Virus record (IMG/VR): IMGVR_UViG_3300045988_050777
Source: a virus
Strand: one strand, 5' to 3'
Length of the DNA stretch: 58,612 bases
The position numbers and the translations under genes were made by a program. The notes beneath the pieces were generated by a model, which saw only the letters and a program-made list of their open reading frames with translations, was not told where the DNA came from and ran no database searches. The first letter of the stretch is position 1. Each line of letters opens with the position of its first letter. Below, in pieces: positions 1 to 58,612 of the stretch.

Positions 1-54
1 ACTCTTTTAGCAAGGGTGGGCGTTTTCTTTTCCGCATTTACAGCAAAAAAAGCC

Positions 55-62
55 TATCTTTG
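55..62 (+). promoter_or_regulatory. Bacteroidota -7 promoter box TATCTTTG upstream of the integrase
   Basis: Matches TAnnTTTG, 39 nt upstream of the ATG at 101. Confidence 0.5.
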
Positions 63-71
63 CGGTACAAA

Positions 72-90
72 GTTCTACAAATGTTCTACA
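72..90 (+). promoter_or_regulatory. Pair of GTTCTACA direct repeats (72..79, 83..90), candidate integrase arm-type sites
   Basis: The same 8-mer pair with 11-bp phasing recurs at 58263..58281, on the other side of the tRNA. Confidence 0.4.
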
Positions 91-100
91 GAAAAAAGAT

Positions 101-2976: not shown

Positions 2977-3666
2977 CTATTTAACAGACATACAAAGCAA
3001 AACCTTGTACACTCCGTAAATATCTTCAAATGCAACCTCAAAGGGTGCAAAGATAGGATCTTGATTAATAGATACACACTTTACATACCCCTCTTTTTCA
3101 GCAGGAACGAGTATCTTAATCACAGTACCGTTACAGGTATCAAGCACATACACCTTTCCCCATTCGATAAAAGCCCTTTCGTTTATCCTCTTTATGAAGA
3201 TCCGGCTACCGTTGGGATATTCAGGCGACATACTATCACCTGATACGGTCATAGCGAAGTCCACGCCACGGATCGGAGATACTACCTTTTCACAATCGCT
3301 TTCCTTGACCGATACAACGAAGTCATTCAAGCTGCCTCCTTGTGCGGACACTGGAAGAAGTAGAACCATCTTTGCAGTCTCTTCCGTTGCATCTTTCTGG
3401 TTGCGCTCTTTGGGATGCTCTTCTTTCGGAGTGTACAGAGTTTCCTCACTTTCTCCGTTATTCAGCATTATCCCAACTCCAGACTTTAGCCACGCTATGT
3501 TTAGTTCCGGGTAAACCTCACTTATTTTCTTCAATGTGTTTTCACGGATGCTATCACCTACTTTGTTCGCCCAACCGTTACTCATTCCGATTGAGATTTC
3601 AAATTTTTGCTGACCCAATCCCTTGTACCGAAGAAATTCCAGCAATCTATCTTTTGTTTCGCTCAT
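2977..3666 (-). CDS. CI/LexA-like phage repressor with S24 peptidase domain
   Basis: N-terminal HTH (…NIAWLKSGVG) and C-terminal GDSMSP…K autocleavage signature. Divergent from the Cro-like gene. Confidence 0.85.
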   Translation of the reverse strand: MSETKDRLLEFLRYKGLGQQKFEISIGMSNGWANKVGDSIRENTLKKISEVYPELNIAWLKSGVGIMLNNGESEETLYTPKEEHPKERNQKDATEETAKMVLLLPVSAQGGSLNDFVVSVKESDCEKVVSPIRGVDFAMTVSGDSMSPEYPNGSRIFIKRINERAFIEWGKVYVLDTCNGTVIKILVPAEKEGYVKCVSINQDPIFAPFEVAFEDIYGVYKVLLCMSVK

Positions 3667-3771
3667 TTTACCGACTTTAATTCTAATTTGATAATCAATA
3701 ACTTATAATTCCCTCGCAAATTTCTTAGAAAAAAACTCCGTAATTATTTGCTTTATTAGAATTATTCTCCG

Positions 3772-3812
3772 TATATTTGCGGTGTAATCAATGTTATTAC
3801 AGGGCAAATATA
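3772..3812. promoter_or_regulatory. 41-bp near-perfect palindrome in the lysogeny switch, containing two opposed TATATTTG -7 boxes
   Basis: TATATTTGCGGTGTAAT-caatgtt-ATTACAGGGCAAATATA. The arms match 15/17. The -7 boxes are at 3772..3779 (+) and 3805..3812 (-). Confidence 0.6.
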
Positions 3813-3854
3813 TGAAAAATGTGTTTGCCAAACGCTAATTTACTGGGTAAAAAT

Positions 3855-4070
3855 ATGGAAAAAAGTAAGTTCAGACAGATTTATGACGCTCTTCCGGCAA
3901 AAGCACCCGTAGCTCCGAAAACGGCTTTTGTAAAAGAAGTTGCGGAGTTATGCAAAGTTTCAGAGAAAACTGTACGCTGTTGGTTGGCAGGAGCGCAAAA
4001 GCCGGATGCTTTGAAAATTTCCCTGCTTTCCCAAAAGTTAGGCGTACCAGAAAACGAATTGTTCAACTAA
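3855..4070 (+). CDS. Cro-like / HTH early regulator
   Basis: ATG at 3855, in frame with track ORF 3819. HTH-like VAELCKVSEKTVRCWLAG. First gene of the rightward operon. Confidence 0.55.
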   Translation: MEKSKFRQIYDALPAKAPVAPKTAFVKEVAELCKVSEKTVRCWLAGAQKPDALKISLLSQKLGVPENELFN

Positions 4071-7845: not shown

Positions 7846-8574
7846 ATGGTTTTGAAAGTGTTAGGATCAAGTAGTCAGGGTAACTGCTACATTCTGGAGA
7901 ATAAGAATGAGGCACTTATCATTGAGGCTGGAGTAAGATTTATTGAGGTGAAAAAGGCTCTGGGCTTCGATATACGCAAAGTGTCTGGCTGCTTGATCAC
8001 GCACCAACATAACGATCACGCAAAATACATTAAGGCAATGGTGGAAAGTGGATTCCCAACGCTGGCACTGGAAGAGGTTTGGACTGCAAAGGGGGTTACT
8101 GGAAGCCGTGCCTATTGTATTGAGCGTGGAAAGGGCTACAGGTTTGGAAGATTCAAGGTGCTGCCATTCGATGCTTGCCACGATGTGCCTTGTGTCGGCT
8201 ACCTGATAGACCACCCGGAAACAGGGCGTATAATGTTCCTTACGGATAGTTGTATGTGTGAGTATGTGTTTCCCGGATTAAACCAAGTTATGATAGAGTG
8301 CAATTACTCTGATGCAAAGCTGGTGGAGGCTATCAATGCCGGGCGTACACTTCCCTCACAGCGTGAACGCCTGATGACTTCACACATGGAGCTAAATACT
8401 TGCAAAGGGTTCTTATGTGCCAATGACCTTACCAATGTGGCAAACATTGTCCTGCTTCACTTATCCGACAACAATAGCGATGAAAAGAACTTTGTTTCGG
8501 AGATAGAAAGGCAGACTGGAAAGGTGGTTTATGCGGCACATACTGGACTTGAAATAGAACTGGATAGGATTTAG
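7846..8574 (+). CDS. Metallo-beta-lactamase-fold hydrolase (probable recombination exonuclease)
   Basis: HxHxDH motif ITHQHNDH. Lies directly after recT. Confidence 0.75.
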   Translation: MVLKVLGSSSQGNCYILENKNEALIIEAGVRFIEVKKALGFDIRKVSGCLITHQHNDHAKYIKAMVESGFPTLALEEVWTAKGVTGSRAYCIERGKGYRFGRFKVLPFDACHDVPCVGYLIDHPETGRIMFLTDSCMCEYVFPGLNQVMIECNYSDAKLVEAINAGRTLPSQRERLMTSHMELNTCKGFLCANDLTNVANIVLLHLSDNNSDEKNFVSEIERQTGKVVYAAHTGLEIELDRI

Positions 8575-9139: not shown

Positions 9140-9784
9140 ATGAAAATTCAAATTGAAAAGGAGAAAGTACAAGCCGCCTATAAAGATGCTTGTGATGGTG
9201 TAAAGGAAATGCTGATTAAGATGTTCGGCAAAGAAGTCTGTGAGGCTGCAAAACCGACACTTGACGATTACAAAACGATCAAGAGTTACGAAGATGCTTG
9301 TGAAGTGCTGGGGCTAACTCCGATCCTTTCGGAAAACAGAAACAAGGCTCTTTGCGCACAGTTTCCAGATCACTACGATTTTCGGCAAAATATGCCTAAG
9401 CACATTATAGCCCTTATGAAGCTGGAAATTATTAGCTGGGCTTTGTGGGGTAAAGACTTCCAGCCAAAGCCAGATGCAGAGGGTAAGGAAATTTATTGGT
9501 ATCCGTGGTTTGCCTTATACACCAAAAAGGAAATGGAAGAAATGAGCGAAGAAAAACGTAAATCTCTGCGTGGTGCTCTGCTCGCTGGGAATGCGTATTA
9601 TGGTGCGATTGCGGGTTTCGGTTATCTGTATACGAGTGATCGCTCCTCGCACTCGTATGCGTACATTGGTTTCCGCTTGTGCCAAGAAACGCCAGAGAAA
9701 GCGGAATACTTCGGAAAACAATTCATTGAGTTGTGGGCTGAATATCTGGCTTTCGGTTTCAAAGTTACAGGACACTTAGAATAA
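9140..9784 (+). CDS. DGR target protein 2 (remote target carrying VR2)
   Basis: C-terminal GALLAGNAYYGAIAGFGYLYTSDRSSHSYAYIGFRLC is encoded by a 108-bp copy of the TR. 35 codons follow the VR. Confidence 0.8.
   Translation: MKIQIEKEKVQAAYKDACDGVKEMLIKMFGKEVCEAAKPTLDDYKTIKSYEDACEVLGLTPILSENRNKALCAQFPDHYDFRQNMPKHIIALMKLEIISWALWGKDFQPKPDAEGKEIYWYPWFALYTKKEMEEMSEEKRKSLRGALLAGNAYYGAIAGFGYLYTSDRSSHSYAYIGFRLCQETPEKAEYFGKQFIELWAEYLAFGFKVTGHLE
9571..9678 (+). repeat. DGR variable repeat VR2
   Basis: 100/108 identical to TR 53903..54010. All 8 mismatches fall at TR adenines. Followed by GTGCC, as VR1 is. Confidence 0.85.
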
Positions 9785-9811: not shown

Positions 9812-10264
9812 ATGAAAGATGTAATGTTAGCGGACACCCCGATTGAGGAACGGGCGCAAATCTTACGGGATAGTTGCGATAAGATTGTTGAGAAGTGCTA
9901 CACCCGGAAATTCGACACGAAAGAAACGAATGAAAAACGTGCTGAACTTGCCAATGTTTCCATTCAGATTGCAGATCTGGAAGAGAAACTGGCAGAAGTC
10001 CGGGCTGACTTAAAAGGGCGTATAAAGCCACTTGCTGAACGCATGGGTAAGATCCGTGGCGAATTGAAAGCTGGTGGAGAATGGGTATCTGGAGAATGTT
10101 ACCAGTTCTTAGATGCTGATGAGGGAAAAGTGGCTCTGTATGATCCTAACGGTTACAAGATTGAAGAGCGTGATATGCGCCCGGAAGAAAGGACACGCAC
10201 CATATTTCAGGGAATACGGGAAAATATGACGGTACAGATGTCTAAGACAGGTACAGATAACTAA
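9812..10264 (+). CDS. Hypothetical coiled-coil protein
   Basis: 150-aa ORF in the early operon. Confidence 0.5.
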   Translation: MKDVMLADTPIEERAQILRDSCDKIVEKCYTRKFDTKETNEKRAELANVSIQIADLEEKLAEVRADLKGRIKPLAERMGKIRGELKAGGEWVSGECYQFLDADEGKVALYDPNGYKIEERDMRPEERTRTIFQGIRENMTVQMSKTGTDN

Positions 10265-10289
10265 TGTTTAACTATTCAAAATTACCAAG

Positions 10290-11054
10290 ATGGAAAGAAA
10301 CGAAAAAGAGAACGGTTTGACCGTGAACATTGAGAACTACACAGGCGAAAAGCCTATTGAGATTGTGTACCGTGAGGGAGCTGCACCGAAATCGCCCAAT
10401 CCGCTTGAAACCAAAGAGCCGGAGAAGATAGGTGTTAGTGGCGTTATCTCCACTCCGTTTGACTGGCTGGAGAAGCGTATAGGCACGATCGACCAGAAAC
10501 GGGCGAATGTGAAAGTGGATCGTGAGAAAATGACGATCACCCTTACCGTGAATGAGGATGATTACTACACGAAAAACACTTTCGTTGGAAAGGTTGAGTT
10601 TTCAGAAGCCTTTGAAAAGTTCGGTATCAATGATGCCAGTTCCGGCTGGATTCCGGCAAAGCTGGGTCAGTTCCTGCGAATTAACCGTGTGCTGTTTGCC
10701 GACAAAGAAGAGTGCATGAAACTTGTTTCTCAACTCAAAAACTTTTCGGCTAAGGCAAAGGCTGAAATCCAGAAACAGCATGATCCGTCCGGCTCTATGG
10801 CTGATGTGTACCGTCAAGAGGTGGAAAGCAACTTGCCGAAGAGTTTCACTATCAATGTGGCTATCTTCAAGGGGACTGCAAAGACACCCATTGAGATAGA
10901 GTTTGACCACTATCTGAAAGACGGTGAAGTGCTGTTACAACTTGTTTCTCCGGGCGCAAATGAACTGACGGAAACCTACCGTGACAGTTGCATTGACGAT
11001 GTTCTTACCAAGATCAAAGCCATTGCGCCAGACATTGCAATCATGGAAATCTAA
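10290..11054 (+). CDS. Hypothetical protein
   Basis: 254-aa ORF in the early operon. Confidence 0.5.
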   Translation: MERNEKENGLTVNIENYTGEKPIEIVYREGAAPKSPNPLETKEPEKIGVSGVISTPFDWLEKRIGTIDQKRANVKVDREKMTITLTVNEDDYYTKNTFVGKVEFSEAFEKFGINDASSGWIPAKLGQFLRINRVLFADKEECMKLVSQLKNFSAKAKAEIQKQHDPSGSMADVYRQEVESNLPKSFTINVAIFKGTAKTPIEIEFDHYLKDGEVLLQLVSPGANELTETYRDSCIDDVLTKIKAIAPDIAIMEI

Positions 11055-17605: not shown

Positions 17606-17626
17606 GCTATTTTTATGCTTAAAAGT

Positions 17627-17658
17627 GTGTTTAGTAAACACATAAATTCATATCTTTG
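17627..17658 (+). promoter_or_regulatory. GTGTT-N5-AACAC palindrome followed 9 nt later by -7 box TATCTTTG
   Basis: GTGTTTAGTAAACAC at 17627..17641 and TATCTTTG at 17651..17658. Same layout as 52097..52128. Confidence 0.5.
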
Positions 17659-52064: not shown

Positions 52065-52096
52065 TGGTTTGAGGGCATATTTTTTCGTCTAAAAGT

Positions 52097-52128
52097 GTGT
52101 TTAAGGAACACATAAATAAGTATATTTG
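52097..52128 (+). promoter_or_regulatory. GTGTT-N5-AACAC palindrome followed 9 nt later by -7 box TATATTTG (promoter of the DGR target operon)
   Basis: GTGTTTAAGGAACAC at 52097..52111 and TATATTTG at 52121..52128. Confidence 0.5.
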
Positions 52129-52153: not shown

Positions 52154-52453
52154 ATGGATAATGATATGTACAGCCTTAGAGTGTTGGCTAAAGGTCAAGT
52201 GTCGGATCTTAGCAAGGGATTCAATCTTGGCGGCAAGCCGTTTTCGGTCTATGTGCGTAGCAAGAGCGCAACGGAAATGGCTACTGATACGCTTCTGAAT
52301 TGCAAGCTGATCTGCGATACTTCGTTTGGCAACATACCAGTACCAGTTGGCGACTGGACACCAGCGGCTATAGTGGAGATTGCCCCAAACGCTATAGACT
52401 TGCAGAAGTATGAGATTTATTGGGGTGCAGGTGAAATCATTAGAAACAACTGA
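52154..52453 (+). CDS. Hypothetical protein upstream of DGR target 1
   Basis: 99-aa ORF. Its stop lies 1 nt before the target ATG. Confidence 0.45.
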   Translation: MDNDMYSLRVLAKGQVSDLSKGFNLGGKPFSVYVRSKSATEMATDTLLNCKLICDTSFGNIPVPVGDWTPAAIVEIAPNAIDLQKYEIYWGAGEIIRNN

Positions 52454-52454
52454 T

Positions 52455-53816
52455 ATGGGACTTTTGTTAGGTAGCGGTAACACGAAACCGCAATATCCGT
52501 ATGATATGTGGTACGGAATAGAGGGAGATTTTACAAGCCGTGATTACAAGCTCAAAAGAGTTGGTAATCTGGACTTGCACAAGACGCTTCCGATTCAGGC
52601 GAAACTGAAACGCTTCGTTGAGAATCCAGACGGATCGGTAAAATACTACTTGCATCCGAATGACAGCCGTAAGAAAGACAGCGGTGCTGCCGCTGTGATT
52701 GACAGCACGGACGGTAATGTGATGCTGGAGAAGCCGGAGTATTATTTCAGGCTGGAGATTGAGGGTACAAAGTGGATTCGTGCCTACTCTGAATATCCTT
52801 TGCCGGGCTTTGTCAAGATGGAGCGCAAAACGGTATCTCCGTGGTTTGCTACTATCAAGATTGATACGAATGAAGCCGTTTCCGGCTGTTTCCTCACTTG
52901 GGACGGTGACAATATCGCCCGTGATGCAAGCGGCTATGTGAAGCTGACCGCCAATGCTGCCAACTACAGGGGTGGTTCTGGCTCTGGAGATGCTGCCAAA
53001 GATGGCACTTACAACTCCATGCTTGGTATGCCTCGCACTTCTATCTCTAAGGTAACAGCCCGTGCCGCTTGCAAGAATGGCACTCACTTGGGCGTGTACC
53101 GTGTGTACAATGAAATCGCTTGGTTGCAGAGGCTGGAGTATGCTTCATTGCATTGTCAGGATGCCTACAATGAAACTCTTACCGCTGATGGCTATCATCA
53201 AGGCGGACTGGGCAACGGTACGGCTGTGAACGGTACGGAGTGGAACACTTGGGGCGGCTATAAGCCTTTCATTCCTTGCGGTGTGACTGCAACGCTGGGC
53301 AACAATACTGGCAGAGTGCCTTATGTGATCAAGGGCTGGACTGGTGGCGATAAGACGGTACAGGTTACTTCTTATCGTGGATTGGAAGTGCCTTATGAAT
53401 ACATTTGGTATCTTGCGGATGATGTGCTTATCTGGCACAAGGCAGATGTTTCTATCGCCTATGTCTGTGAAGATCCTACCAAATTCACTTCACACTCCGA
53501 TTCCGCTACTTCCGTGCCAGATGGCTATGAGGCTATCACTGAATTGCCACGCAATGATGGATATATCCTACAGTTCGCCCATTCAAGCAAGGGCTATGCT
53601 TTCCCTGAAACGGTAGGTGGTTCTGCCGCTGCTGGTGGCTGTGATTATTTCTACACTTGTGTAGATGATTCCGGCTGGGCTTCTCCGGGCTGGTATGGTG
53701 CTCTGCTCGCTGGGCGTGCGAATTCTGGTGCGGCTGCGGGTTTCGGTTATCTGGATACGAATGGTCGCTCCTCGCACTCGGGTGCGTACATTGGTTTCCG
53801 CTTGTGCCGTTTTTAA
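52455..53816 (+). CDS. DGR target protein 1 (C-terminal VR1; probable receptor-binding/tail accessory protein)
   Basis: ATG at 52455 (track ORF starts at 52410). Ends ...GALLAGRANSGAAAGFGYLDTNGRSSHSGAYIGFRLCRF. Confidence 0.85.
   Translation: MGLLLGSGNTKPQYPYDMWYGIEGDFTSRDYKLKRVGNLDLHKTLPIQAKLKRFVENPDGSVKYYLHPNDSRKKDSGAAAVIDSTDGNVMLEKPEYYFRLEIEGTKWIRAYSEYPLPGFVKMERKTVSPWFATIKIDTNEAVSGCFLTWDGDNIARDASGYVKLTANAANYRGGSGSGDAAKDGTYNSMLGMPRTSISKVTARAACKNGTHLGVYRVYNEIAWLQRLEYASLHCQDAYNETLTADGYHQGGLGNGTAVNGTEWNTWGGYKPFIPCGVTATLGNNTGRVPYVIKGWTGGDKTVQVTSYRGLEVPYEYIWYLADDVLIWHKADVSIAYVCEDPTKFTSHSDSATSVPDGYEAITELPRNDGYILQFAHSSKGYAFPETVGGSAAAGGCDYFYTCVDDSGWASPGWYGALLAGRANSGAAAGFGYLDTNGRSSHSGAYIGFRLCRF
53696..53803 (+). 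repeat. DGR variable repeat VR1
   Basis: 96/108 identical to the TR. All 12 mismatches fall at TR adenines. Confidence 0.9.
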
Positions 53817-53902
53817 CGGACTGCAAAGCGGCGGTACACGGGGGCTTTTTTGCGAACGTGAATTGAGAAAGAAATGAGAATAAACAGGTTGATGGTGATA
53901 GG

Positions 53903-54010
53903 TGGTGCTCTGCTCGCTGGGAATGCGAATAATGGTGCGAATGCGGGTTTCGGTTATCTGAATACGAATAATCGCTCCTCGCACTCGAATGCGAACATTG
54001 GTTTCCGCTT
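53903..54010 (+). repeat. DGR template repeat (TR)
   Basis: Noncoding copy with nine AAY codons in the VR frame. 22 adenines. 150 nt upstream of the RT. Confidence 0.9.
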
Positions 54011-54160
54011 TTACCGTGGTTTCAACTTTACAAGATATAACTGTGATCACCATGACCTTACCACACAGGGGCTATCGGCACTGCTGGTAGCTGGTAAAAA
54101 AAGACGAATTAAAACGGTGTTAGTAAGTAATTGAACGCTCCGATTTAGACCAACGGCACA

Positions 54161-55348
54161 ATGGGCTTGATAAAGACAGAATACGGCTTATGTTACAGTA
54201 GCGATACGATGTTTAACGGCTATAGTGATATGGAGGATTGCGGATATTATATTGGCGATACTGGTAGCCTCTATATATCCCAAAGCAAGAAGCTAAAGAA
54301 TATCTATCCTCTTATCTACGAATCCGCAAACCTCGTTAGGGCGCAATATAATGCACAGAAAGGCAAGGGCGATCGTACAGAGATACGGAAGTTCAACAAT
54401 AACATTATTGAGTGCCTGACAGACTTGTATTTCCAGCTAAGGAATATGACCTACCAGCCGGGCGAATACAAGACTAAGACTATATATGAGCCGAAAGAAA
54501 GGCTGATTATGATTGCGCCTTTCTATCCTGATCGTATAGTCCACCATTGCGTTATCAATGTGCTTGGGCAACATTGGACGCACATATTCACGTCAAACAC
54601 TTACGCTTGTATCAAAGGCAGAGGCGTACACAAGTGCATGGAAGATCTGCATAGGGATATGATGCTGGATAAGAAAGGCACTAAGTATTGCTTGAAGATA
54701 GATATAAGAAAGTATTTCGACAATGTGGATCACGAATCAATGAAGCGGATAATCCGTTACACCATAGCGGATGATCAGATGCTTTGGCTGTTGGATAGAA
54801 TTATAGATAGCAACGGTAAAACAATCGGTTTGCCAATAGGTAATTTCACAAGCCAGTATTTTGCCAACCTATACCTCGCATACTTCGATCACTGGGTGAA
54901 AGAAGATCTTGCAAGAATGGTGATGGCGAAATTTGGGGTGAAGATATACTACTACCGATATATGGATGATATAGTAGTCCTTTGCTCCAGCAAGGAAGCA
55001 CTGCATTTCATACTTGACATGATGGGGCTTTACTTGGCTTCGGAACTGAAACTGGAGATAAAACCGAACTGGCAGATCTTCCCGGTCGATGATCGTTGTA
55101 TAGACTATGTGGGCTTCAAACAGAATCACTACGGTATTTTGCTCCGAAAGGGCATACTTATGAGGTTCTATAGGAAGCTGAACAAAGTCAAGAAGAGATA
55201 CGAGATCAAAGACATAAACGATGTAAAACACCTCTTCCCGTCTGAATACGGCTGGGTAATCAGATGCTCGGAGGAACACAGTAAATTCATCTTTAATAAA
55301 TGTTTGAACAATGGAAACAACAGGATTATTTATCGGGTTGCTGGCTGA
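54161..55348 (+). CDS. DGR reverse transcriptase
   Basis: YRYMDDIVVL (YxDD) and IGLPIGNFTSQYFANLYL (the DGR-type SQ motif). Adjacent to the TR. Confidence 0.9.
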   Translation: MGLIKTEYGLCYSSDTMFNGYSDMEDCGYYIGDTGSLYISQSKKLKNIYPLIYESANLVRAQYNAQKGKGDRTEIRKFNNNIIECLTDLYFQLRNMTYQPGEYKTKTIYEPKERLIMIAPFYPDRIVHHCVINVLGQHWTHIFTSNTYACIKGRGVHKCMEDLHRDMMLDKKGTKYCLKIDIRKYFDNVDHESMKRIIRYTIADDQMLWLLDRIIDSNGKTIGLPIGNFTSQYFANLYLAYFDHWVKEDLARMVMAKFGVKIYYYRYMDDIVVLCSSKEALHFILDMMGLYLASELKLEIKPNWQIFPVDDRCIDYVGFKQNHYGILLRKGILMRFYRKLNKVKKRYEIKDINDVKHLFPSEYGWVIRCSEEHSKFIFNKCLNNGNNRIIYRVAG

Positions 55349-58513: not shown

Positions 58514-58612
58514 ACTCTTTTAGCAAGGGTGGGCGTTTTCTTTTCCGCATTTACAGCAAAAAAAGCCTATCTTTGCGGTACAAAGTTCTACAAATGTTCT
58601 ACAGAAAAAAGA
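58514..58612. repeat. 99-bp direct terminal repeat, right copy
   Basis: Identical to 1..99. Contains the integrase promoter region. Confidence 0.95.

Follow-up and report, generated by a model that had tools for sequence, protein, structure and literature searches.

The DNA analyzed here, IMG/VR virus record IMGVR_UViG_3300045988_050777, is a stretch of 58,612 nucleotides (hereafter the window) from a gut Bacteroides phage. We focus on one of its genes, encoding a 214-aa protein, which carries a variable repeat (VR) of a diversity-generating retroelement (DGR) at a distance from the template repeat (TR) and reverse transcriptase (RT) of that element. Positions 58514..58612 are a 99-nt, 100% identical copy of positions 1..99, and this terminal overlap therefore defines a circular genome of 58,513 bp. 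The gene order is lambdoid: an integrase gene and a CI-like repressor gene (minus strand) are followed by a promoter consensus and by plus-strand genes for a Cro-like helix-turn-helix (HTH) protein, an SbcC-like ATPase, RecT, a metallo-β-lactamase (MBL)-fold hydrolase, NinB, the VR-bearing protein, a phrog_12688 protein, a DUF2303-like protein, a replisome organizer, DnaC, a pyrophosphatase and ParB. Head and tail genes follow 24 kb downstream of the VR-bearing gene, and the DGR cassette, composed of a tail protein gene (target 1, with VR1), the TR and the RT gene, lies near the far end of the linear map. A preliminary description of this DNA had placed the VR-bearing gene between a NinB-like gene and the replication genes, and our annotation, with the replisome organizer and DnaC genes in the same rightward early operon, agrees. 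Coordinates are collected in Table 1.

Table 1. Features of the window and of related Bacteroidota loci; positions refer to the window unless a locus is named.
Feature	Position	Strand	Basis
Bacteroides-type promoter consensus (TTTG...TAnnTTTG) heading the rightward early operon	3747..3779	+	consensus match
VR2 gene, DGR variable protein 2, 214 aa, phrog_11581	9140..9784	+	full-length profile match, E = 1.7e-70
VR2, encoding residues 144-180	9570..9678	+	101/109 identity to TR, A-only mismatches, population entropy
VR2 3' boundary GTGCCAA, with GTGCC as a marker resembling an initiation of mutagenic homing (IMH) site	9679..9685	+	common to VR1, differs from TTACC of TR
Target 1, 468-aa tail protein, phrog_5302	52410..53816	+	E = 1.9e-119
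VR1, C-terminus of tail target 1	53695..53803	+	14 TR mismatches within the repeat, all on A
TR, 22/109 bases A, arranged as AAY codons in the VR frame	53902..54010	+	
TR-RT spacer RNA resembling Rfam RT-17	54054..54161	+	RF03020, 25 bits, E = 0.025, below gathering score
DGR reverse transcriptase, 395 aa	54161..55348	+	RVT_1 E = 1e-18; phrog_1423 E = 4e-117; IGNFTSQ and YMDD
Assembly overlap	58514..58612		100% identity to 1..99
Paralogues of the VR2 protein family	L121 1971-2342, 5950-6483, 6483-6959; L119 5944-6474, 6499-6873; L120 412-1276		

A repeat search of the window returned a single family with three copies (9570-9683, 53695-53808 and 53902-54015), corresponding to VR2, VR1 and TR, and no third VR was found by this search. 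VR2 aligns without gaps to the TR as well as to VR1. All eight mismatches between VR2 and TR fall on TR adenines (TR 53928, 53931, 53941, 53961, 53968, 53970, 53988 and 53994), which occupy only 22 of the 109 positions (P = 8e-7, hypergeometric), and all lie in AAT or AAC codons, at residues 153, 154, 157, 164, 166, 167, 173 and 175 of the protein. The same holds for VR1, where 14 of 14 mismatches are on adenines (P = 2e-12). VR1 and VR2 use one common reading frame when aligned to the TR; in that frame the TR presents nine AAY codons, and each VR2 change is confined to one of them. Together with four codons holding a single A, the recodable positions allow approximately 1e13 variants of a 37-residue segment, and no change in an AAY codon can yield a stop codon. 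GTGCC directly follows both VRs (9679..9683 and 53804..53808), while TTACC stands at that place in the TR. The preliminary description had delimited the repeat as 9571..9678 with 100 of 108 identities; this is the same repeat as 9570..9678 (101/109), and our alignment reproduces its eight mismatch coordinates on adenines of AAY codons, the GTGCC shared with VR1, and the separation of VR2 from the TR, 44.2 kb in the linear view and about 14 kb (14.07 kb) via the circular junction. It had also counted 35 codons after VR2; the number is 34. An 86-aa open reading frame (ORF) at 53874-54134 was rejected as a gene, being merely the TR read in the VR frame, which is the source of its PHROG tail and RT matches.

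The closest sequenced phage, Versailles (ON453897.1), is syntenic with the window and encodes an orthologue of the 214-aa protein at 10181..10762 (WAK79127.1, 53% aa identity), whose VR differs from the Versailles TR at 14 positions, 14 of them adenines. The window and Versailles TRs differ from each other at non-adenine positions (GGTGCTCTGCTCGCTGGG versus GGTGCCCTTTTGTCTGCT), and in each phage both VRs follow their own TR. The preliminary description had proposed a comparison of related phages for adenine-specific differences at both VRs; in eight IMG/VR contigs carrying both the VR2 gene and an RT gene, 97 of 98 VR2 mismatches (P = 1e-63) and 103 of 110 VR1 mismatches are on adenines, the seven VR1 exceptions lying at the 5' edge of the alignment. 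Non-adenine TR positions vary among these eight genomes, and both VRs again track the TR of their own genome. The only explanation we see for this concerted evolution of VRs and TR is continued rewriting from the TR. In all ten genomes (the window, Versailles and the eight IMG/VR relatives), every VR1 and VR2 ends in CGCTTGTGCC and every TR in CGCTT(T/A)TACC, so that a fixed 3' difference, CTTGTGCC versus CTT(T/A)TACC, separates all VRs from all TRs. A more distant family member, gp84 of phage BI-TP1 (LoVEphage type), likewise differs from its own TR at adenines in 14 of 14 mismatches, although its VR lies on the strand opposite to the TR.

Variation within populations was assessed in the best 120 of 3529 protein-database homologues, all of 214 aa, 91-97% identical and from independent assemblies. 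Entropy exceeded 2 bits at residues 151, 153, 154, 157, 164, 166, 167, 171, 173 and 175, and reached 2.0 bits at residue 162, 1.6 at residue 176 and 0.8 at residue 165. These residues are exactly the 13 codons with a TR adenine (151, 153, 154, 157, 162, 164-167, 171, 173, 175 and 176). Of the 13 positions above 1 bit in the whole protein, 12 are among them (P = 1e-17), and outside the VR the protein is near-invariant and always full length. Invariance of VR2 across populations had been put forward in the preliminary description as the mark of a relic, and these homologues show the opposite, hypervariability at the TR-adenine codons. That VR2 is a relic, a former target or a product of recombination with VR1 or the TR that is no longer rewritten, might be suspected from its distance to the RT and from the absence of a BPP-1-type hairpin downstream of it. 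A relic would, however, gather non-adenine differences and frame disruptions, whereas the scaffold is conserved and intact around the hypervariable codons, and in 10 of 10 related genomes VR2 tracks its own TR at non-adenine positions and differs at adenines. The population hypervariability and the TR tracking contradict the relic explanation, which we reject as highly improbable.

We also considered whether the repeat at 9570..9678 could be an assembly artefact, with VR1 or TR reads misplaced in an unrelated gene. Hypervariable repeats can break or collapse assemblies: one IMG/VR contig (IMGVR_UViG_3300029486_000118, L016/L078) fuses a VR2-type gene directly to the RT region, and several database homologues (P0126, P0134, P0141, P0151 and P0153) switch reading frame inside the VR. 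This join and these frameshifts are probably collapses or errors caused by the hypervariable repeats. The arrangement itself, however, is present in the complete genomes of the induced or isolated phages Versailles and BI-TP1. It also recurs in thousands of separate, independent assemblies, where unique and conserved sequence flanks the VR at either side and a conserved helix follows it. An artefact was thus rejected, its probability being close to nil. Taken together, these results show a one-way flow of information from one TR to two VRs, with change restricted to adenines, and show that the two VRs vary independently on a scaffold under purifying selection, which extends across genomes and populations the independent diversification that had been proposed from the window. 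We conclude that VR2 is almost certainly an active DGR target, and the data support a true second VR that the single TR/RT cassette serves in trans.

The 214-aa protein belongs to phrog_11581, a family of function unknown, with a match spanning residues 2-209. Its match to the tail family phrog_5302 is limited to residues 139-183, the VR. BLASTP similarity to target 1 is similarly confined to residues 145-182 versus 430-467, and a profile-profile comparison of the two target families with hhalign aligned only those 38 columns. The two targets therefore differ in scaffold and share a templated module, and are not duplicates: the idea of a VR cassette in an unrelated scaffold, raised in the preliminary description, is borne out, and a duplication of target 1 is rejected. 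Clustered at 50% identity, the phrog_11581 family comprises 573 clusters, of which 190 have E < 1e-10, and a profile search found more than 7000 clusters at 90% identity, with members of about 160-220 aa. Conserved motifs, invariant or near-invariant in three family alignments, include YEDAC..LG, KL..I..AL(N/W)xGW, YYPWF, G.RL where the VR ends, and A.Y.G.QF..LW in the helix after it; the VR is internal, and the conserved helix is C-terminal. No signal peptide, lipobox or membrane segment was found in the 214-aa protein, whose N-terminus (MKIQIEKEKVQAAYKDA...) lacks a hydrophobic stretch. AlphaFold2 predicted a confident, mostly helical scaffold, with a predicted local distance difference test (pLDDT) score of 86-96 in most blocks and a predicted template modelling (pTM) score of 0.72. 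Searches for known relatives were negative: Pfam gave no match at E <= 1 for the protein or for 66 family members, NCBIfam none for the protein, PADLOC only a 13.6-bit chance match, a PDB sequence search with the family profile only spurious matches (E > 0.03), and Foldseek of the model against PDB no match (best E 3.8). Foldseek against BFVD returned only uncharacterized gut-phage proteins, some from crAss-like viruses and podoviruses. Target 1 also had no match in the PDB.

The position of the gene was then examined in the window and in other phages. A match to the Bacteroides promoter consensus lies between the CI-like gene (2977..3666, minus) and the Cro-like gene (3819..4070), and is one of eight matches in the window, against 2.3 expected. 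No further plus-strand match occurs between position 3779 and the VR2 gene, and co-transcription of the VR2 gene with the early genes is thus the simplest reading. A scan of the early region for sigma-70 promoters and terminators, a model unsuited to Bacteroides, returned fewer sites than shuffled sequence, or no more. In BI-TP1, the family member is found among genes for methyltransferases, a TIGR02757/DUF2400 protein, an ASCH protein and a tRNA ligase; in a prophage on a 273-kb contig, it stands between genes for an HTH protein and for YqaJ, a helicase and a DnaB-primase; and in a 77-kb phage contig, it is upstream of YopX, PNK, SbcC-like and RecT genes. The MBL-fold hydrolase of the window (phrog_392, 7846-8574), encoded between RecT and NinB, has a counterpart in locus L112 with a weak Pfam match to Anti-Pycsar Apyc1, and may be an anti-defence enzyme that degrades cyclic nucleotides.

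More distant relatives were retrieved in a genome scan with a single protein query and one genome per species. At 26-32% identity, they occur in Dyadobacter, Sphingobacterium, Daejeonella, Chitinophagaceae, Flavobacteriaceae and Bacteroidales metagenome-assembled genomes (MAGs), with named hosts including Dyadobacter sp. CY261 and Sphingobacterium thalpophilum, and match phrog_11581 at E = 1e-22 to 1e-36. At seven loci, the family member is directly upstream of an RT 42-46% identical to that of the window. In these cis-cassettes, two or three tandem paralogues precede one TR and RT; the VR in each of them spans about 80 nt, and its differences from the neighbouring TR fall almost exclusively on adenines (17/17 and 18/20 mismatches on A in L119; 12/12, 12/12 and 14/14 in L121; 14/14 and 15/15 in L125). 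One of the L121 paralogues is 4 kb upstream of the other two. Neighbouring genes were annotated in two loci, L119 (a Bacteroidales MAG) and L121 (Dyadobacter), where PHROG assignments give the order CI-like repressor (minus), targets, TR, RT, HNH, replication initiator and DnaC or primase-helicase. The cis-cassettes thus share with the window a phrog_11581 target, a related RT, A-mutated VRs, an RT-17 spacer RNA (L119) and, where annotated, a place between repressor and replication genes. They differ from it in having two or three targets in cis, shorter VRs, and proteins that lack the insertion of about 25 residues found in the gut-phage members. No tail target was seen within ±6 kb of sequence around them. 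Wherever neighbours were examined, the scaffold gene is in an early, non-structural region, whether the RT is adjacent or 14-44 kb away, and this position across lineages is our strongest argument for a non-structural role. We conclude that, in temperate phages of Bacteroidota, the scaffold is an early-region protein dedicated to DGR variation.

The RT of the window carries the motifs IGNFTSQ and YMDD, which fit the DGR-type pattern sought ([I/L]GxxxSQ and YxDD), and the TR is 150 nt upstream of the RT. The spacer between them matches Rfam RT-17 over its full length, although below threshold; at the equivalent position of the related Bacteroidales cassette L119 (7001-7079), the motif scores 43 bits, above gathering, and the RT clade of the window appears to have RT-17 as its DGR spacer RNA. 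With the BPP-1 DGR (Mtd tail fibre, TR, Avd and bRT), the window has in common adenine-restricted mutagenic retrohoming from TR to VR, AAY codons, the xGxxxSQ motif of the RT, and a 3' difference between VR and TR that gives directionality. BPP-1 has features of its own: its target, encoded next to the cassette, is a tail-fibre tip of C-terminal C-type-lectin type, and it possesses Avd as well as a GC-rich IMH with a hairpin. By contrast, the VR2 protein of the window is small, early and remote, its VR is internal and precedes a conserved helix, and neither Avd nor the hairpin was detected.

Remote DGR targets outside the structural genes have been reported before. Quimbyvirus has a second, non-structural, A-mutated DGR target, described as a protein with a C-type lectin domain (Benler et al. 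2021, Microbiome 9:78, PMC8008677). Quimbyvirus and LoVEphage both align at about 95% to one Bacteroides dorei prophage (CP011531), and this common prophage identifies the second Quimbyvirus target as the homologue of BI-TP1 gp84. Like the window protein, gp84 (about 195 aa) belongs to phrog_11581, with 35-37% identity over 94% of the length, and has an internal VR followed by a conserved ...AxYFGxQFxxLW helix. BI-TP1 and the window also both diversify this protein in trans, from a TR and RT beside the tail target, in the non-structural region of a temperate Bacteroides phage. They differ in type (71-kb Quimby type versus 58.5-kb Versailles type), in the TR, in the strand of the VR relative to the TR, and in the neighbours of the gene, which in the window are NinB, RecT and the replisome organizer. 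The BI-TP1 RT (gp11, L003 5441-6256) is annotated at only 271 aa, and both BI-TP1 VRs are A-diversified nonetheless; Benler et al. report for Quimbyvirus an RT divided between overlapping frames, which this length fits.

A distal second VR has also been described in four gut prophage species, LoVEphage, Saffi, Wilby and Shia (Dahlman 2025, Nature 647:698, PMC12629997). Bacteroides phage Shia (57,951 bp, two VRs, RT, no Avd; Table S3 of that paper) is similar to the window in its size, its host genus and the composition of its DGR, and by this comparison of descriptions may belong to the same phage type. That study contains no account of the protein family, of its variation in populations or of the cis-cassettes. 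The papers on Versailles, LoVEphage and BI-TP1 do not mention the VR2 gene, and the Versailles paper mentions no DGR. As stated there, the cassette-based survey of Roux et al. (2021, PMC8144416) could not see remote targets, and we found no account in the literature of the early-region placement of this scaffold across Bacteroidota. The tentaclins, considered as a match, are a different two-target family. A further likeness, drawn from the literature, concerns putative antigen sensors that are DGR-diversified in multicellular bacteria (Doré et al. 2024, PNAS, cited in PMC12629997): these too have a DGR-diversified binding domain that acts intracellularly, as proposed here for the window protein, but they are large multi-domain cellular proteins, whereas the window encodes a stand-alone phage protein of about 200 aa. 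The preliminary description had called a remote target in the early operon unusual; unusual it is, but not unprecedented, given the Quimbyvirus homologue (PMC8008677) and the four prophage species (PMC12629997). Remote non-structural VRs being already known, the present analysis adds the assignment to a protein family, the evidence from populations and the cis-cassettes of the early region.

Three other features of the window were recorded. A tRNA-Arg gene is immediately upstream of the integrase gene, a layout also present in Versailles. Within 450 nt directly downstream of the integrase gene (1392-1839), the palindromic motif TTTGCCTAAGCAAA occurs in about eight copies, which may be sites for a recombination directionality factor, the integrase arm domain or a regulator. 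Finally, a 51-nt direct repeat (17608-17658 versus 52078-52128, 78% identical) contains the inverted repeat GTGTGTTTA..TAAACACA, and terminates in a TAnnTTTG box like the Bacteroides -7 element. Of its two copies, one stands before the packaging and late genes and the other before an ORF (52154-52453), directly upstream of target 1, and the DGR cassette with target 1, TR and RT. The repeat is a candidate late promoter or activator site, in which case the DGR would be expressed late.

Our preferred interpretation, to which we assign a probability of roughly 0.8, is that VR2 is a working second target of the single DGR of this phage, in a cytoplasmic, non-structural binding protein. The RT would copy the TR RNA, together with its RT-17-like spacer, into cDNA with misincorporation opposite adenines, and the cDNA would then take the place of VR1, in the tail gene next to the cassette, or of VR2, approximately 14 kb away on the circle (44 kb in the prophage). 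The homing determinant is most likely the 3' end common to the VRs (GGTTTCCGCTT-GTGCC; …GGTTTCCGCTTGTGCC), unlike the TTACC of the TR. The cassette would be expressed late, to judge from the 51-nt element with its TAnnTTTG box. New VR2 alleles would arise during replication or lysogeny and be expressed early in the next infection. The progeny would then carry varied VR2 alleles, a library of up to approximately 1e13 variants of an intracellular binder, and this variation would hedge against polymorphic intracellular host factors as the tail VR does against surface variation. Candidate ligands are polymorphic host defence proteins, host replication partners of the replisome organizer or DnaC, and proteins of competing phages.

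That the protein is non-structural and intracellular is, taken by itself, probable but held with less confidence; we infer the intracellular binder from the gene position and the absent signal peptide. Several observations weigh against the interpretation as a whole. "Early" and "cytoplasmic" derive from gene order, a promoter consensus match and the absence of a hydrophobic N-terminal segment. The binding surface is not seen in the models, since residues 145-175 had pLDDT < 50 in two AlphaFold2 runs (66-row and 138-row alignments), the deeper alignment bringing no gain in the VR; with the VR modelled at this level, neither Pfam nor the PDB sequence and Foldseek searches detected a C-type-lectin fold. 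No Avd-like accessory gene, of either the Avd or the HRDC type, was found by Pfam and NCBIfam searches of the small ORFs flanking the cassette. No GC-rich hairpin or cruciform follows VR2 (DNA folding of 9660..9740, z = -0.64, no better than shuffled), and nothing of a stem-loop 3' of the VR is conserved in Versailles or BI-TP1. A GC-rich stem-loop at this place is not universal among DGRs, but with neither hairpin nor Avd, target recognition may differ from the BPP-1 paradigm.

The Versailles orthologue is, moreover, annotated as a tail protein, which brings in another explanation, that the VR2 protein is a virion component, an accessory receptor-binding or decoration protein attached via its conserved N- and C-terminal helices, with its gene outside the structural module by chance. 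Phage DGR targets are mostly tail proteins (PMC8144416), and VR2, sharing its TR with one, would form the same kind of variable surface. The Versailles label, however, traces to the VR-only phrog_5302 match and is probably a misannotation: the sole structural-family match of the protein covers the VR, as does the hhalign alignment to the target-1 family. The virion explanation also sits poorly with the lack of a signal peptide, with Foldseek matches to uncharacterized phage proteins only, and with the location of the gene in the early or DNA-metabolism region in every lineage examined, including prophages with the whole cassette between repressor and replication genes. We therefore consider a virion component unlikely, and retain a cytoplasmic, non-structural binder as the more probable role of the VR2 protein.

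Phage DGRs are usually taken as host-range devices that act at the cell surface. That a second target is made along with the recombination and replication genes suggests a further use of targeted hypermutation, at an intracellular step. The finding also bears on annotation: remote VRs escape cassette-based DGR surveys (PMC8144416), and a VR alone can cause a tail protein label, as in Versailles. The family is small (about 200 aa), abundant, with thousands of gut-metagenome variants, and present in the cultured, inducible phages Versailles and BI-TP1, which makes it a tractable system for finding the ligand of an intracellular DGR phage protein. Across Bacteroidota it is encountered both next to the RT and at a distance from it. 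More tentatively, and with the odds somewhat against it, phrog_11581 could be a phylum-wide class of early-expressed cytoplasmic DGR proteins, ancestrally the sole cis target between immunity and replication genes, and a determinant of intracellular host range or counter-defence. If so, gut phages would use one template to diversify two consecutive steps of infection, with the tail VR acting in adsorption and VR2 in establishment inside the cell.

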